Origin: Escherichia coli
Lineage (GTDB): Bacteria > Pseudomonadota > Gammaproteobacteria > Enterobacterales > Enterobacteriaceae
Length of the DNA stretch: 64,000 bases
NCBI RefSeq assembly: GCF_044647545.1
Contig: NZ_CP172818.1
Direction: 5' to 3' (one strand)
The notes beneath the pieces were generated by a model. That model was not told where the DNA came from, made no database searches, and was given only the letters and a program-made list of their open reading frames with translations. The position numbers were made by a program, and so were the translations under genes. Shown here piece after piece: positions 3,083 to 37,715 of the stretch (its first letter is position 1; every line of letters starts with the position of its first letter).

Positions 3083-3649
3083 TTAGGTAACATTTAGTTT
3101 GGATAAATGTAAAGGTATTGCTGTTTTATTGTTTGTTTTTGCGAGATGCGCCGCACCATTCCGAAGCAAAATTCTTAAACTGCACCTTTTTGGTGCTACC
3201 GCTGATTTGTGGTGGTGCAACCCGGTTGCGTCGCGGTTGATTTCATTGCTTACACAGTAAATAAAGCAACTTACATGCCAAAAAATACTTAGGGGTGCAT
3301 TAATTACGATTGTAATTTCAGTTTGAAAAAGTCATATTTCGGACAGTGTTAACTTTTCGGTGTGGGAATTTTGCCGGGATGATAACTACACACGGGAAAA
3401 TGTTTTTTACTAGTCTTTTCAAGGAAAAATCACTTTATGTCTGCATCTTCGGTTAAGCCGTTAAATGTTCAATTACCCGCAATAACCCTGATCCTTTTTG
3501 CGCTCTGTGTTGGGATATTTTGTTACCTCGCACAATGGATGAGTTACAAAAAAGTCAATAAATCCGCACTCATCCATCTCGGCGCTAACTTTCTCTCTCT
3601 CACGTTGTCGGGTAAACCCTGGCGTTTATTTAGCAGTGTCTTTTTACAG

Positions 3650-9614: not shown

Positions 9615-11039
9615 TTACGGCTGATAATAACCCACGCCAAGGTCGTTTTCTTTGCGGGTACGGGCAATCACCGATTCCGGCGTTTCTGCCACGCGCAGAC
9701 CCATTTCATCTTCAGTACGCACCACTTTACCGCGCAGAGAGTTCGGGTAGACGTCGGTAATTTCTACATCGACGAATTTACCGATCATATCTGGCGTGCC
9801 TTCAAAGTTGACCACGCGGTTATTTTCAGTGCGACCGGAAAGCTCCATGATGCTCTTACGCGATGTACCTTCTACCAGAATACGCTGGGTGGTGCCGAGC
9901 ATCCGGCGGCTCCATGCCATTGCTTGCTGATTAATACGTTCTTGCAGAATATACAGACGCTGCTTCTTCTCTTCTTCCGGAACATCATCAACCATATCGG
10001 CGGCTGGTGTACCTGGACGTGCAGAGAAGATAAAGCTGTAGCTCATGTCGAAATTGACGTCGGCAATCAGCTTCATCGTTTTCTCGAAGTCTTCGGTGGT
10101 TTCGCCAGGGAAGCCAACGATGAAGTCAGAACTGATCTGAATATCCGGACGCGCCGCACGCAGTTTACGGATGATCGCTTTGTACTCCAGCGCTGTATGG
10201 GTACGTCCCATCAGGTTCAGAATGCGATCGGAACCGCTCTGTACCGGCAGATGCAGGAAGCTCACCAGCTCCGGCGTGTCGCGATACACTTCGATGATAT
10301 CGTCGGTGAATTCGATCGGATGGCTGGTGGTAAAGCGAATACGATCGATCCCGTCGATCGCCGCAACCAGACGCAGCAGATCGGCAAACGATCCGGTGGT
10401 GCCGTCGTAGTTTTCACCACGCCAGGCGTTCACGTTCTGACCGAGCAGGTTGACTTCACGCACGCCCTGAGCCGCAAGCTGGGCAATTTCAAACAGAATA
10501 TCGTCGGACGGACGGCTTACCTCTTCACCACGGGTGTAAGGCACCACGCAGTAGGTGCAATATTTATTGCAGCCTTCCATGATGGAGACAAACGCGGTCG
10601 GCCCTTCGGCGCGCGGTTCTGGCAGACGGTCAAACTTCTCGATTTCCGGGAAGCTGATATCTACAACCGGGCTGCGGTCGCCGCGCACGGAGTTGATCAT
10701 CTCCGGCAGACGGTGCAGCGTTTGCGGCCCAAAAATAATATCGACATAGTGGGCGCGCTGGCGAATGTGCTCGCCTTCTTGCGATGCCACGCAGCCGCCG
10801 ACGCCGATTATCAGGTCTGGATTCTTCTCTTTTAACAGTTTCCAGCGACCCAACTGATGGAAGACTTTTTCCTGAGCCTTCTCGCGGATTGAGCAGGTGT
10901 TCAGCAGCAGCACATCCGCTTCTTCCGCCACGTCGGTCAGTTGATAGCCGTGGGTGGCATCCAGCAGATCGGCCATCTTCGATGAATCGTACTCGTTCAT
11001 CTGACAGCCCCAGGTTTTAATATGGAGTTTTTTGGTCAT
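9615..11039 (-). CDS. miaB: tRNA-i6A37 methylthiotransferase
   Basis: 474 aa ORF with radical-SAM CxxxCxxC motif (CNKYCTYC). Confidence 0.9.
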
Positions 11040-31205: not shown

Positions 31206-31235
31206 AAAGGGCGGTCAGAAGATCGCCCTTTTTTA
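31206..31235 (+). terminator. pgm intrinsic terminator
   Basis: gggcg-loop-cgccc hairpin followed by T6. Confidence 0.7.
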
Positions 31236-31244
31236 CTTATGACT

Positions 31245-31344
31245 GCCTGATGCGCTACGCTTATCAGGCTTGGGAAGATGGTGCAATATATTGAATTTAC
31301 GCGATTTTGTAGGCCGGATAAGGCGTTCACGCCGCATCCGGCAT
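31245..31344. repeat. Cluster of two REP elements (BIME-like)
   Basis: tgcctgatgcgctacgcttatcaggc and gtaggccggataaggcgttcacgccgcatccggc. Confidence 0.6.
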
Positions 31345-31393
31345 GAACAACGAGCACTTTGCCAACAAACTGAATAGCTCAAGGGAATTCAAA

Positions 31394-31888
31394 ATGAAGA
31401 CCAAAAGGAGTCTGGTCGTCAGAGTGGCATTAATTACCGCCACACTACTGCTGACAGCATGCGCCCAACCTGAACAATCATCATTAGCTGGTGACTGGTT
31501 ACTGACCCCTAAAGATAAAACCAGAGGATTAACGGGGAGCATTGCGGTAAATATTGCGCCTTCCCGGTGTAAGACAAATTGCCGTGGCGATAACTTACCT
31601 GATAATACCCGCCGCTGGCAGTTGTCAGGCGGGAACGAAAAAGAACTTACTTATCTTCATGATATGTCAGCACAAGAAAAGACCGGTTTAAATCCTGAAT
31701 GGCAATGCTACACCTCATTTTTTATGGGGATTTGCCAGGGTAAGCCCGGCACTCGACCGATAGTTAATGAGGATTATGTCAGCGAAAGCGGATTTTTTGG
31801 CTCGATGATGCATGTCGGGATTATTGAGTTGCGACGCTGTCAGTCAGAAAATTGCCAGCAAGAATTGAAAGCGATAAACACACATTAA
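31394..31888 (+). CDS. ybfP: Lipoprotein YbfP
   Basis: ORF 31343..31888; 164 aa from MKTKRS, lipobox LTAC. Confidence 0.8.
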   Translation: MKTKRSLVVRVALITATLLLTACAQPEQSSLAGDWLLTPKDKTRGLTGSIAVNIAPSRCKTNCRGDNLPDNTRRWQLSGGNEKELTYLHDMSAQEKTGLNPEWQCYTSFFMGICQGKPGTRPIVNEDYVSESGFFGSMMHVGIIELRRCQSENCQQELKAINTH

Positions 31889-31928: not shown

Positions 31929-32579
31929 TTATTGCGTGATTGTTTCTTTCATTTGATACTGCATTTCCCAGAGTTCAGTAAGCGAAATAACTTTTCTTGT
32001 TCTTGCTTCTTCACATTGTACCCATAAGAAAGGGTAGAAAGTGAAGGCTTCCGTTGCCGATAATTTTATTACGTCTTCTTGCCATTGCGGCCAGCGTACA
32101 TTTTCATAGAAGGTATCTAAATCACCGGATAATGCCCACTGAAGAAACTCAGAATATCCAACCTCCAGACTTTCCCAATTCAGCGTATCTGGCGCAAAAT
32201 AATAAACGCAGCCAGTATCTTCCCCAAGATCGCCACCATTAAGAGCAAAAATTCCCCCTGCGACATCATCGGCGATGGGTAAAGCCCGCACGCTTGCGAA
32301 TTCAGGGCGTTGTGTCCAACTTGCTGGATCTCGTGGTAACCGGGGGTGACCAGAGCCTGCTATGCGTAACCAACCGTTATCAATCAGCAGACCTCCGGAG
32401 CCATAGACAAGCGCACCCATCGGTGATTTTGTTGTAACCTGTAATTGATAAAGTGCGGTTTCGGCTAAATCTTTATTAACCGGTAAGAGTTCGGCATGGT
32501 TTGTGGCTTCTTTTAACCAATTCTGGATTATTGGCCAGGCTGAATCTTCAGTATTTACTAACTGACTCACTTCACGCAT
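31929..32579 (-). CDS. ybfG: DUF2625-type uncharacterised protein
   Basis: ORF 31929..32687; start at MREVSQL preceded by AAGGAG 9 nt upstream; intact here. Confidence 0.6.
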   Translation of the reverse strand: MREVSQLVNTEDSAWPIIQNWLKEATNHAELLPVNKDLAETALYQLQVTTKSPMGALVYGSGGLLIDNGWLRIAGSGHPRLPRDPASWTQRPEFASVRALPIADDVAGGIFALNGGDLGEDTGCVYYFAPDTLNWESLEVGYSEFLQWALSGDLDTFYENVRWPQWQEDVIKLSATEAFTFYPFLWVQCEEARTRKVISLTELWEMQYQMKETITQ

Positions 32580-32702
32580 CGCTACTTGCTCCTTGTGTGC
32601 TACGGTGTCATTTATGATGAGGCATTGTATGGGACATTTTTTAAATATTAAGTTCCTTATATTTGAATAAAAAATGACTTTATCCATACATTGCCACTTT
32701 TT

Positions 32703-32846
32703 TCAAAGCATAAACCGATACCCAATACCGGCTTCAGTAATGAAATGGCGGGGCGGACGAGATCCTGTTCCAGTTTTTGTCGCAAATGCCTCATATAATT
32801 ACGCAAATAGTTGCTGTGTTCGACCGCGTTTGGACCCTACACCTGC
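32703..32846 (-). pseudogene. ybfI: Remnant of an OmpR-family response regulator 3' end (kdpE-like fragment)
   Basis: About 140 bp nearly identical to the 3' end of kdpE at 37040..37180 in this window. Confidence 0.7.
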
Positions 32847-32880
32847 CGGATGCGGCATAAATAACGAACTCTTTGTCAAC

Positions 32881-32917
32881 AAACAGAAAGGGCGATCATT
32901 CAATCGCCCTTTTTTAT
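32881..32917. terminator. Bidirectional hairpin terminator downstream of potE
   Basis: agggcgat-loop-atcgccct stem with flanking A/T runs. Confidence 0.6.
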
Positions 32918-32927
32918 TTCGCTTTTT

Positions 32928-34247
32928 TTAACCGTGTTTATTTTTCAGTTCAAAGCGTGGAGATACCAGACCATACAGTGTCCAACCAAGGAAGGTCACG
33001 ATGGAACCGTACAGCATGGCTTCTTCCCCGGATGAGTACAGCGCATAGAAACTGTACATCGCACCAACAAAGGCAACAAAGTTTGCTACTTTCGCTTTTG
33101 ATGGTGGCACATTGGCGACCTGCTGAATAATGACTAACGCCGCCATCGACAGAATATACGGGATGATATTGGTCACAACGGCCAGGTTAACCAGCACGTT
33201 GAACTGACTGTTCAGCGACGGGCTAATGGTCATCAGTGATAATCCGCTCTGGATGATGACAATGGTCAGCATTCCCTGTACTGGTGCATCGACTTTGCTC
33301 ACACGGGAGAAAATTTTCGGGAAGTACCCTTCATCGGCAGAAGATTTAAACACCTGGGCAATGGTGAACTGCCAGCCAAGCAGCGAACCGCAGCAGGACA
33401 TCACCATCAGCGCCATAATGACTTTACCCACTCCCGGCGTGAACATCTGTGCGAAGGCCAGGCCAAATGGTGCCGTTGAATTTGCCAGCTCCATATTTGG
33501 CACAATCCCGGCAATCACGTTGGTGGAGACGATATAAATCACCGCCGCACCTAACGTACCGCCAAGAACTGCAATCGGCACGTTACGTTCCGGGTTTTCA
33601 ACTACTTCGGCGTTGGCACAGGCAGACTCCAGACCGAGGAAAGCCCACAATGTCATGGCGATGGAGGAACCTACAGCGCTAAAGAACGGTACATGATGAG
33701 GGTTCCATGAGTTAGCGTACAGCGTCGGGCTAAACCAGAACCAGCCGATAATGCACAGACCGACGACCGGAATAATGACCCCCCACACAGTAATGCTACT
33801 GATTTGCCCGGTAATGCGCGCACCACCAAAGTTAGCCACGGTACAAATCCACAGCACTCCGATGGTCGCAAGACCAATCTGCACTGGCGACAAACTCGCG
33901 CCGAGCAGTTCGGTGCCGTAACCAACCGCCGAAATAGCAATCGCGACGTTAGCAATCAGCAGCGAGACACCGTAGGTGTAGTTCGCCATAAAGTTCCCTG
34001 ATTTACCGAAAGCATACTCCGCATAACCGCCCATACCGCCTGATTTACGGCTGAACATGCCGCATTTTGCGAATGCCCATGCCAGCGCCATTGAGCCTAC
34101 GGCTGTCACCAGCCAGGAGATAATTGAGATTGTCCCAACTTCGGCAAGCTTTGTCGGCAGCATGATGATACCGGAGCCCATCATGTTGACCATCGTCAGT
34201 ATGGTTAACTGAACGACGCCCATCTTGTTCGATTTAGCCTGACTCAT
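32928..34247 (-). CDS. potE: Putrescine-ornithine antiporter
   Basis: ORF 32928..34307; 439 aa from MSQAKSNK; APC-family permease. Confidence 0.9.
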   Translation of the reverse strand: MSQAKSNKMGVVQLTILTMVNMMGSGIIMLPTKLAEVGTISIISWLVTAVGSMALAWAFAKCGMFSRKSGGMGGYAEYAFGKSGNFMANYTYGVSLLIANVAIAISAVGYGTELLGASLSPVQIGLATIGVLWICTVANFGGARITGQISSITVWGVIIPVVGLCIIGWFWFSPTLYANSWNPHHVPFFSAVGSSIAMTLWAFLGLESACANAEVVENPERNVPIAVLGGTLGAAVIYIVSTNVIAGIVPNMELANSTAPFGLAFAQMFTPGVGKVIMALMVMSCCGSLLGWQFTIAQVFKSSADEGYFPKIFSRVSKVDAPVQGMLTIVIIQSGLSLMTISPSLNSQFNVLVNLAVVTNIIPYILSMAALVIIQQVANVPPSKAKVANFVAFVGAMYSFYALYSSGEEAMLYGSIVTFLGWTLYGLVSPRFELKNKHG

Positions 34248-36442
34248 AATTTTTCCCCTTTCAGCAGGGTGCTTTGCGCACCACGAGGCTTGATGACATA
34301 GCACCAAACTTGCTTACGACCATCATGTTCTTCGATATAGACACCCTGAAGCTCCGGTGCAAAACCTGGCAGCAGGTTGATCCCTTCTTCCAGAGCGCTG
34401 AAGTAACGCAGAACAGCACCACCCCAGATTTCACCCGGAACAACACACAGCACTCCCGGAGGATAAGGAAGCGCACCTTCTGCAGCGATACGGCCTTCTG
34501 CATCCGGCAGACGAACCAGCTCCACTTCACCGCGTAAATAGGCGTAGTTGGCTTCTTGTGGATTCATGCTGACACGTGGGAAGTGTTCCTTACGAAACAT
34601 CTCTTTTTGCAGTTGTTTCACGTTGTGACGGGCATACAAATCATGCATTTCCTGACACAACTGACGCAGGGTATAACCGGTGTAGCGCTCTTCATGCTGT
34701 TTGTAGATGGAAGGCAGTACTTCTGATAATGGCGCGTCGGACTCAAGCAGTTTTTCGAAGCGTACCAGCAGAGCAGCAAGTTGCTGAAGTTTGGCCATAT
34801 CTTCTGCCGGAGTCAGCAGAAAGAGGATGGAGTTAAGATCGCATTTTTCCGGCACTACGCCATTTTCGCGCAGGAAGTTAGCAAGAATCGTCGCGGGTAC
34901 ACCGAACGCTTCATATTCGCCGTTACGTGCATCAATACCTGGGGTTGTCAGCAACAGTTTGCACGGATCGACAAAGTATTGATTCTCTGCATAGCCTTCA
35001 AAAGAATGCCAGTGCTCACCTGGTACAAACTGGAAGAAGCGCAGATCAACCGCAATTTGCGCTGTTTCATACGACTGCCAGGGTTTACCATCCACCAGTT
35101 CAGGTACGAATGGACGAATATGCTGACAGTTATCGAGGATCAGTTTGCGGGCATTAATGCCATTTACCACACAATCCATCCACATATTACGACCGCTGAC
35201 ACCTTCATGCATTTTGGCGTTGATATCCAGTGCGGCAAACAGCGGATAGAACGGGCTGGTGGAGGCATGCATCATAAAGGCGTTGTTCATGCGTTTGTGC
35301 GGTACATAACGCTGTTGCCCTTTGATATGGCTGTCTTTTTTATGGATTTGTGAAGTCTGGGAAAAACCAGCCTGCTGTTTATGCACAGATTGCGTAACCA
35401 GAATACCCGGATCGTTCTCATTTAGATCCAGTAACAGCGGTGAACAGTCCGCCATCATCGGGATAAACTGCTCATAGCCGACCCATGCGGAGTCAAAGAG
35501 GATGTAGTCACACAGATGACCCATTTTATCCACCACCTGACGGGCGTTATAAATCGTACCGTCGTAAGTGCCTAGCTGAATAACGGCGAGGCGGAAAGGA
35601 CGCGCCTCTTTTGCCCGCTGCGGTGCGACTTCTGTAATCAGTTCGCGCAGGTAATTTTCTTCGAAGCAGTGGGCATCAATACCACCGATAAAGCCATACG
35701 GGTTGCGTGCGGTTTCCAGATAAACTGGTGTTGCGCCAGCCTGTAGCAACGCTCCGTGGTGATTAGATTTATGGTTATTACGGTCAAACAGCACCAGATC
35801 CCCCGGTGTTAACAGGGCGTTTAAAACCACTTTGTTAGAAGATGAAGTGCCATTTAGAACGAAGTATGTTTTATCGGCATTAAACACTTTTGCCGCATGT
35901 TGCTGTGCAATGCATGGCGCGCCTTCGTGAATCAGCAGATCGCCCATTGCCACATCCGCGTTGCACAAGTCAGCACGGAACAGCGCCTCACCAAAGTATT
36001 CCACAAACTGATTCCCCGCCGGATGGCGACGGAAAAATTCGCCGCCCTGATGACCGGGGCAATCAAACGCGCTGTTACCCTGATTGACATAATCGACCAG
36101 TGCGCGGAAGAAGGGCGGGCGCAGTTGAGTTTCATAATGGCTGGCTGCGGTTTCTAACTGACGACCATAAAATTCTCGTCGCGATTCGCAATTCTCAAAG
36201 ACACCCGAAATACGGGGCAAATACTCTGCGGGTACACGTTCTTGATTTTCAGTAGCAATAAATACCGGGATGCCATAACCCGTGGCATCGATTTCATCGA
36301 GTTTTCCGCGTGTAACATCGTTGAGCGATAAAACTATTGCCGCCACATCGATATTACTGTTTTCATTAATATAGATACATTCTCGCTGCGTGGTAAAACA
36401 GTCCGGGCAAGAATCACTAACCGCAATTTTTAATTTTGACAT
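34244..36442 (-). CDS. speF: Inducible ornithine decarboxylase
   Basis: ORF 34244..36520; 732 aa from MSKLKIAVS; fold-III PLP decarboxylase. Confidence 0.9.
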   Translation of the reverse strand: MSKLKIAVSDSCPDCFTTQRECIYINENSNIDVAAIVLSLNDVTRGKLDEIDATGYGIPVFIATENQERVPAEYLPRISGVFENCESRREFYGRQLETAASHYETQLRPPFFRALVDYVNQGNSAFDCPGHQGGEFFRRHPAGNQFVEYFGEALFRADLCNADVAMGDLLIHEGAPCIAQQHAAKVFNADKTYFVLNGTSSSNKVVLNALLTPGDLVLFDRNNHKSNHHGALLQAGATPVYLETARNPYGFIGGIDAHCFEENYLRELITEVAPQRAKEARPFRLAVIQLGTYDGTIYNARQVVDKMGHLCDYILFDSAWVGYEQFIPMMADCSPLLLDLNENDPGILVTQSVHKQQAGFSQTSQIHKKDSHIKGQQRYVPHKRMNNAFMMHASTSPFYPLFAALDINAKMHEGVSGRNMWMDCVVNGINARKLILDNCQHIRPFVPELVDGKPWQSYETAQIAVDLRFFQFVPGEHWHSFEGYAENQYFVDPCKLLLTTPGIDARNGEYEAFGVPATILANFLRENGVVPEKCDLNSILFLLTPAEDMAKLQQLAALLVRFEKLLESDAPLSEVLPSIYKQHEERYTGYTLRQLCQEMHDLYARHNVKQLQKEMFRKEHFPRVSMNPQEANYAYLRGEVELVRLPDAEGRIAAEGALPYPPGVLCVVPGEIWGGAVLRYFSALEEGINLLPGFAPELQGVYIEEHDGRKQVWCYVIKPRGAQSTLLKGEKL

Positions 36443-36699
36443 TTTCCAACTCTTTATTTTTGGTAATAGCAGGTCCTCAATTTCTCGAATGAGAAATCGA
36501 TCGTGCCGGAAAAAAAGCAAAGTTACCCCGCTGATAAATTAATCAGAAGTTTGCTTTTTTCAGAATGCAGAAACCCTTATCAGTCCGGTGGCTGATAATA
36601 CAAGGGTTAACAGAGAATGAGCACTGCGGAATACAGGCATATGCCTGTAATACAGAGAGTCAGGAAGACCTGTACGCTGAAGTGCCCTTAGTCGGTAGA

Positions 36700-36804
36700 C
36701 TAACGGGCATTGAAGAAGTGAAAGTCGAAGCTATTGCGATGAGCAAACTTCATAATATGAGTTGTCCGCCTTATATGGGGCATAGTGCGGCTGTTATTTT
36801 CCAT
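36700..36804 (-). CDS. speFL: SpeFL leader peptide (ornithine-sensing ribosome-arrest peptide)
   Basis: 34-codon ORF MENNSRTMPHIRRTTHIMKFAHRNSFDFHFFNAR on minus strand with AGGAAAGG SD upstream. Confidence 0.7.
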   Translation of the reverse strand: MENNSRTMPHIRRTTHIMKFAHRNSFDFHFFNAR

Positions 36805-37037
36805 TTAATTTACCTTTCCTGATGTGAATGAAGGTGAAGGTATTCTATCCAGGAAATACGGTTGAACTGTGAAGGTGATCAATAAAAAATGATCAATCTT
36901 AATTTATTTAATGATGAGCTTTTTACTCAGTAATATAAAATATTGAATTGTTATTTTTGTGTGTTGTTTAAGATAAAAAGCCGTATTTATTATTACGGCT
37001 TTAATTAATAAAAGGCAGGATGTATTAAAATTAATAT

Positions 37038-37715
37038 TCAAAGCATAAACCGATACCCAATACCGGTTTCAGTAATGAAATGGCGGGGGCGAGCGGGATC
37101 CTGTTCCAGTTTTTGTCGCAGATGTCCCATATAAATACGCAAATAATGGCTGTGTTCGACCGCGTTTGGCCCCCACACCTGGTTAAGGAGCTGGCGCTGG
37201 GTGAGCACTTTTCCGGCATTGTTGAGCAGCACCGCCAGCAGGCGAAACTCAATCGGGGTGAGATGCACCTCTTCCTCACCGCGATGGATCACGCGGGCGG
37301 CTAAATCGACGGTCACATCGGAAAATTTCACCAGCGGATCGGGCGCGGTGGTGGCGGAGTGGCGGCGTAAAGCGACGCGCAGACGGGCCTGCAATTCGCC
37401 AATACCAAATGGCTTACTCAGGTAATCATCCGCTCCGGCATCCAGCGCGGCGATTTTGTCGCTCTCTTCGCTACGTGCGGAAAGCACAATTACGGGCACC
37501 GCGCTCCACTGGCGCAGGTCGCGGATAAACTCAATCCCATCGCCATCGGGCAGGCCGAGATCGAGAATAATCAAATCTGGTTTACGGGTTGCCGCTTCCA
37601 GCAAGCCCCGTTGTAGCGTTTCGGCTTCAAAGACGCGCATACCGTCGCCCTCCAGCGCTGTGCGCAGAAAGCGACGAATAGCTTGTTCATCTTCAACAAT
37701 CAGAACGTTTGTCAC
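37038..37715 (-). CDS. kdpE: KDP operon response regulator (OmpR family)
   Basis: 225 aa ORF, receiver Asp plus winged-helix C-terminus. Confidence 0.95.
   Translation of the reverse strand: MTNVLIVEDEQAIRRFLRTALEGDGMRVFEAETLQRGLLEAATRKPDLIILDLGLPDGDGIEFIRDLRQWSAVPVIVLSARSEESDKIAALDAGADDYLSKPFGIGELQARLRVALRRHSATTAPDPLVKFSDVTVDLAARVIHRGEEEVHLTPIEFRLLAVLLNNAGKVLTQRQLLNQVWGPNAVEHSHYLRIYMGHLRQKLEQDPARPRHFITETGIGYRFML

Follow-up and report, generated by a model that had tools for sequence, protein, structure and literature searches.

The stretch between ybfG and potE in the window (the whole 64-kb piece of E. coli DNA analysed) is the known E. coli K-12 pseudogene ybfI (b4636), which is already catalogued, and we conclude with high confidence that it is a dead relic of the kdpE tail acting as a passive recombination substrate. 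Together, ybfI and the kdpE tail form 145-bp direct repeats which enclose exactly potE-speF-speFL, and homologous recombination between them removes speFL-speF-potE, leaving an intact kdpE beside ybfG. As a catalogued pseudogene with no sign of function, ybfI on its own matters little; what is added here to the known gene is that it belongs to a polymorphic insertion bounded by REP elements and that it serves as substrate in the precise loss of speFL-speF-potE. The prior annotation, the REP junction and the direct repeat around speFL-speF-potE all go beyond the original prediction, which had described a stranded duplicate of the kdpE 3′ end.

A blastn search with positions 32650-32900 against the whole 64-kb window returned the kdpE 3′ end as the sole strong non-self match: 32702-32845 aligned to 37037-37181 over 145 columns with 91.0% identity, 12 mismatches and 1 gap of 1 nt (E = 1.2e-53). 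The predicted near-identity of ~140 bp to the end of kdpE is thus real and far above background; the coordinates first given, 32703-32846, mark the correct stretch but are shifted by 1 nt at each end. The fragment lies between ybfG (31929-32579, minus strand) on one side and potE (32928-34247, minus strand) on the other, next to speF-potE as predicted, and the distance to the kdpE copy, in direct repeat orientation, was measured at 4,191 bp, in line with the ~4 kb originally proposed. Its minus-strand translation, ...QV*GPNAVEHSNYLRNYMRHLRQKLEQDLV(frameshift)RHFITEAGIGYRFML*, confirms the quoted tail HFITE.GIGYRFML. Homology runs from 1-2 nt past the kdpE stop codon to kdpE codon ~178 and so takes in the ~47 last codons plus the stop. 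The full kdpE at 37038-37715 matches both Response_reg (PF00072) and Trans_reg_C (PF00486) in Pfam, whereas the repaired ybfI translation matches only positions 41-77 of the 77 of Trans_reg_C (E = 4.5e-7), that is, the C-terminal half of the DNA-binding domain, which in the winged helix comprises the recognition helix and the wing; even after conceptual repair ybfI has no complete Trans_reg_C. Pfam and inspection of the frame agree with the prediction that the fragment has neither a receiver domain (PF00072), homology beginning only at kdpE codon ~178, nor a start codon upstream, and the TAG and the 1-bp deletion also break its frame. Compared with KdpE, a potassium response regulator of the OmpR/PhoB family to whose last 47 codons it is homologous, ybfI thus lacks the receiver, the first half of the DNA-binding domain and the start, carries a premature stop and a frameshift, and is incapable of function. 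The features are collected in Table 1.

Table 1. Positions in the window of ybfI, its kdpE counterpart and the surrounding elements.
Feature	Position	Strand	Remark
T1 terminator-like hairpin	31206..31238		after pgm
Full REP + spacer S, upstream of ybfP	31300..31374		left copy of the bracketing REP-S repeat
ybfP, orphan lipoprotein gene	31394..31888	+	within the inserted block
ybfG (DUF2625), 216 aa	31929..32579	-	directly downstream of ybfI, same strand
ybfI pseudogene	32702..32845	-	last ~47 kdpE codons + stop, copied
1-bp deletion of ybfI, window allele	near 32757/32758		
In-frame TAG of ybfI	32837-32839	cta on + strand	disabling change
Truncated REP (ccggatgcggca), then 31-nt spacer S′	32846..32888		directly abuts kdpE-derived sequence
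T2 terminator-like hairpin	32885..32917		just downstream of potE; resembles T1
potE-speF-speFL operon	32928..36804	-	enclosed by the ybfI/kdpE direct repeat
kdpE 3′ end, second direct-repeat copy	37037..37181	-	functional gene = 37038-37715

In K-12 MG1655, ybfI is annotated at NC_000913.3 716721-716870, between ybfG and potE, and elsewhere PGAP labels it 'winged helix-turn-helix domain-containing protein, incomplete, missing N-terminus' or partial KdpE. The assignment holds both by position, in the K-12 annotation and the PGAP annotations of five other strains, and by orthology, the K-12 and window alleles sharing both boundaries and the TGG>TAG change. The K-12 copy is like that of the window in its site, boundaries, TAG, flanking REP half-site and terminator; it is unlike it in that the window allele, 91.7% identical, has an extra 1-bp deletion and an intact ybfG beside it (ybfG is intact in the window and in most block-carrying strains, and is a pseudogene in the K-12 annotation). 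The window allele is that of an ST648-like group of about 120 complete genomes. The literature searched contained no paper on E. coli ybfI: matches to 'ybfI' were to the unrelated B. subtilis gene, and in one paper (PMC4759930) ybfH::kan serves merely as a linked marker.

Recombinants were sought with a chimeric query made of the ybfG 5′ end, ybfI and the next 300 nt of kdpE, which only a recombinant can cover in one piece; three genomes (CUWW10, GF4-3 and KL53) were found among 5,426. CUWW10 and GF4-3 both have the order pgm-ybfP-ybfG-intact kdpE-kdpD, with the operon missing. At every diagnostic site CUWW10 has the kdpE state, after which it continues into the ybfI downstream flank, with the crossover within the repeat's last ~20 nt, and in GF4-3 the crossover lies within the last ~45 nt. 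Against the block-carrying strain H9Ecoli, CUWW10 shows flank identities of 100% toward kdpD and 99.3% toward pgm, and the operon loss is therefore recent and not an ancestral order. KL53 lost the same region through IS1, and an IS1B with an adjacent deletion lies near its ybfI. Repeat-mediated operon deletions thus number only two among the 5,426 genomes, and the reciprocal duplication junction, that of a tandem operon, was found in none of them. A crossover anywhere in the last 29 codons of K-12 ybfI would yield wild-type KdpE, because these codons encode the same amino acids as the KdpE end. Service as a passive repeat substrate is the sole visible present-day activity of ybfI.

With positions 34400-35600 as query, speF was absent from about 380 of the 5,426 genomes (301 with no match, 81 matching only the paralogue speC), and sequence search showed that speF is truly absent from genomes without the operon. 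The 145-bp repeat explains the precise natural loss of speFL-speF-potE in some E. coli, which bears on ornithine decarboxylase and putrescine export as a trait and on engineering near kdp, for example with Keio markers.

Judged from its substitutions, ybfI appears to be decaying neutrally, with no product and no detectable regulatory role. All four ybfI alleles carry the TAG and three other changes, all absent from the E. coli kdpE allele pool, and a 1-bp deletion is common to three of the four. The 16 ybfI-only sites are spread over codon positions 1/2/3 as 6/7/3, against 2/0/12 for the 14 variable sites among functional E. coli kdpE tails, a third-position share of 3/16 versus 12/14 (Fisher p = 0.0007); this codon-position comparison with kdpE gave no sign of purifying selection on the ybfI coding sequence, and the lack of third-position bias among its own substitutions is what points to neutral decay. 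We consider it very improbable that ybfI is functional, whether by encoding a short peptide from the C-terminal winged helix, by giving rise to an antisense RNA or sRNA, or by contributing to the ybfG promoter or 5′ UTR. Its same-strand location ~120 bp upstream of ybfG, a weak -35/-10 match over its stop codon and the shared amino acids of the last 29 codons in K-12 speak for such a role; they are countered by the stop in all alleles, the frameshift in most non-K-12 alleles, the missing start codon, the neutral substitution pattern and the absence of ybfI from 61% of genomes. Promoter scans gave matches no better than chance, including the one overlapping the ybfI stop codon, and Rfam covariance models had no match inside 32702-32845 at E <= 1, the flanks giving only sub-threshold REP and terminator look-alikes. 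An antisense 85-aa ATG open-reading frame (32674-32931, plus strand), which spans ybfI and REP′-S′-T2, had no match in Pfam and is in all likelihood spurious. In several strains ybfI or its flanks are disrupted or truncated by IS elements, which also tells against a function. IS1A is found between ybfI and potE in FUJ80154, where ybfI is truncated, ISVsa5 between ybfG and ybfI in 99COLEC, and IS200 between ybfI and potE in Z0117EC0005; the insertions around ybfI (region 32580-32930) are independent and clustered.

The source of ybfI was an E. coli-lineage kdpE, because its identity is 88-90% with E. coli kdpE tails and falls to 80.7% with C. koseri and 76.6% with Salmonella (77-81% across the two), because it carries E. 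coli-specific synonymous states, and because only 4 changes are common to all its alleles and foreign to the kdpE allele pool. Salmonella and C. koseri have the order kdpFABCDE-speFL-speF-potE-pgm (Salmonella with one extra gene before pgm), and at this locus neither has a second kdpE tail or the ybfP-ybfG-ybfI block. In O157:H7, O55:H7, CFT073 and ST131, pgm and potE stand ~56 bp apart with a single terminator hairpin, an empty site. Outgroup synteny and the empty-site E. coli together mean that speF-potE beside kdpE is ancestral and ybfP-ybfG-ybfI inserted: the block is a ~1.7-kb insertion in an ancestrally short pgm/potE spacer. Phylogenetic distribution had been proposed as a check of the original prediction; among 5,426 complete E. 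coli genomes, 2,103 (39%) have the block. The term 'stranded' fails here: ybfI does not stand alone and is the inner end of a polymorphic insertion.

The same outgroup synteny largely refutes an att-type duplication of the 3′ end, a reading that would make speFL-speF-potE the insertion and ybfI the former end of kdpE, now displaced; we regard it as extremely improbable. The element e14 integrates in icd, leaving icdC, with the phage or island carrying a replacement 3′ end. The geometry of ybfI and kdpE is the same, in that a segment lies between direct repeats of a gene's 3′ end, one of which stays with the functional gene; homology ends at the stop, and precise loss of the segment with the gene left intact does occur (CUWW10, GF4-3). 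However, the segment bracketed here is an ancestral operon, with only potE, speF and speFL between the repeats and no integrase or other mobility gene; the extra DNA, ybfP-ybfG, lies on the other side, and the junction is in a REP, with no att core. The order kdpE-speFL-speF-potE-pgm also occurs in Salmonella and C. koseri without a second kdpE tail, and empty-site E. coli have the operon and no ybfI, so that of the marks of att duplication only the direct repeat of a gene 3′ end was found, and neither an integrase nor absence of the segment from relatives.

On the plus strand the order is pgm - T1 hairpin - REPs - REP - spacer S - ybfP - ybfG - ybfI and then, across the junction, half REP - S′ - T2 hairpin - potE. 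REP′-S′ (32846-32888) and REP-S (31331-31374) form a diverged direct repeat of 82% identity; an Rfam match to naRNA4/REP at the left copy was sub-threshold only. T1 and T2 have nearly the same stem and T-run; the single hairpin of block-free (empty-site) genomes combines a loop resembling T1 with a right flank resembling T2, so the empty site may be ancestral or may have come from a T1 × T2 deletion. YbfP, essentially an E. coli orphan, lacks a Pfam domain and matches just 27 of 5.8 billion database proteins at E <= 1e-5. YbfG is at least 93% identical within E. coli and reaches ~50-57% at best elsewhere (Kosakonia, Erwinia, Pantoea).

The two ends of ybfI differ in kind: at the inner end, the sequence derived from kdpE runs straight into the middle of a REP, and at the outer end homology stops 1-2 nt after the stop codon, for which every simple model needs a coincidence. 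REP elements are reportedly join points of tandem duplications in enterobacteria. The ybfI junction is like the join points of REP/BIME rearrangements in its mid-REP fusion and in the flanking of the block by REP-containing repeats; it differs in that no tandem duplication survives, and the mechanism is read from the scar only. ybfI is a clean example of a gene-tail relic marking an old rearrangement junction at a REP element. The step by which it arose is much less certain than its identity, and the models are rated separately. Most likely, one rearrangement would have brought ybfG beside a kdpE 3′ end, for example when two alternative locus architectures recombined unequally with a breakpoint in a REP, and ybfI would have been joined to the chromosome by an illegitimate junction inside the REP element. 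An isolated local duplication is less likely; of the originally proposed origin, the relic of an old rearrangement of the kdpE 3′ end stands, and simple local duplication becomes one of several possible routes.

Besides the block-carrying and the empty site, a third common state, pgm-T1-REP-S-ybfP-BIME-kdpE, occurs in 246 complete E. coli genomes and is without ybfG, ybfI and the whole speFL-speF-potE operon. Its ybfP is 87% identical to that of the window, whereas K-12 ybfP is 95% identical and pgm ~98% in all strains, so this state is old. In two such sequences (L020 at 10475-10606, and L023, DSM 103246) a non-homologous spacer begins right at the stop codons of ybfP and kdpE. Two further genomes, R32_14_1F and N96, are block-free with pgm-T1-REP-S-T2-potE. 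We tried this arrangement as an ancestral intermediate and set it aside, since the distinctive left-spacer haplotype of these genomes is common to close block-carrying relatives and fits a secondary deletion better; most likely they lost the block by REP-S × REP′-S′ recombination. Their spacer S (L024 at 3295-3312, and L025) differs at three clustered positions by substitutions unique to it, gttaataatctgaa vs gccaacaaactgaa, exactly where the deletion junction is presumed to lie. The pgm-kdpE interval has at least five structural states in E. coli and is a useful small model of repeat-driven locus turnover.

We tentatively entertain, as a real possibility that still falls short of being probable, that ybfI is the scar of unequal recombination between a standard chromosome and a lineage in which ybfP-ybfG replaced speFL-speF-potE directly against kdpE. 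The pgm side would have been homologous and the other side illegitimate, joining kdpE codon ~178 to a REP in the pgm/potE spacer; ybfI would be the tail of the donor kdpE, and REP-S and REP′-S′ the orthologous spacers of the two parents. A homology stop at the stop codon is expected if ybfG lay natively downstream of the donor kdpE, REP′ is truncated exactly at the junction, the REP-S copies (82%) are more diverged than the kdpE copies, and the 246 genomes show that an old haplotype with the block's ybfP (87%) against a full kdpE and no speF-potE does exist. Yet this old haplotype is without ybfG, a BIME and not the ybfG flank follows its kdpE stop, and its kdpE tail resembles ybfI no more closely than other kdpE alleles do. 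Every genome with ybfG beside a full kdpE carries a recent deletion and was rejected as an ancestral donor: compared with a block-carrying strain, the flanks match at 99.3-100% (CUWW10) and 99.98-100% (KL53). As for the predicted intermediate without the block (R32_14_1F, N96), it has the look of a secondary deletion and not of an ancestor. Close homologues of YbfG and YbfP are lacking outside E. coli, and none of the distant DUF2625 genes checked lies beside kdpE.

A tandem duplication joined at a REP seems to us unlikely. The duplicated segment would extend from the REP between pgm and potE as far as kdpE codon ~178, and foreign ybfP-ybfG would then have taken the place of the redundant first potE-speF-speFL copy, so that the copy-1 tail became ybfI. 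The model has the merit that one step accounts for the full left REP, for the junction's half REP and for the direct repeat of REP-S, with an E. coli-type kdpE source 4.2 kb away and with REP elements being documented join points in enterobacteria. Its cost is a second event with an endpoint exactly at the stop codon of a functionless fragment, and no genome retains the duplicated operon or its junction.

A wider reading, which we consider possible though rather unlikely, makes ybfI the surviving junction of a recombination between two long-lived pgm-kdp architectures, one with speF-potE and the other with ybfP(-ybfG) abutting kdpE. In combination with the repeats of REP-S and of the terminators, it would then turn the interval into a modular switch region, from which the acid-inducible ornithine decarboxylase/antiporter operon and the ybfP-ybfG block are repeatedly lost and could be regained from donor DNA by homologous recombination, with kdpE never damaged.

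Several candidate relatives from outside E. coli were rejected. A KdpE cluster (P0208; 93% identity, odd lengths) taken as other species consisted of frameshifted E. coli calls, and the DUF2625 genes considered as lying beside kdpE in other genera were Kosakonia and Citrobacter sp. copies in unrelated neighbourhoods. Scanned against genome contigs, YbfG matched two Paenibacillus loci and one contaminant contig of E. coli type, and nothing else. A 1.9-kb contig labelled 'MAG: Collinsella sp.' (L006, JAIJJM010000630.1) is 99.8% identical to K-12 across ybfP-ybfG-ybfI, and on the strength of this identity is E. coli contamination of the Collinsella metagenome-assembled genome. Three short Logan contigs (L012-L014; SRR9087304, SRR27475578 and SRR27475714) with YbfG at 75-86% and a kdpE-like tail had been taken as a sister lineage; this reading was dropped, as relative to K-12 they show 118 transitions with no transversion, or 93/95 C>T, a spectrum which marks them as chemically converted or mutagenised K-12 DNA. 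Translations of these contigs stand in the protein database as spurious 75-86% YbfG 'homologues'.
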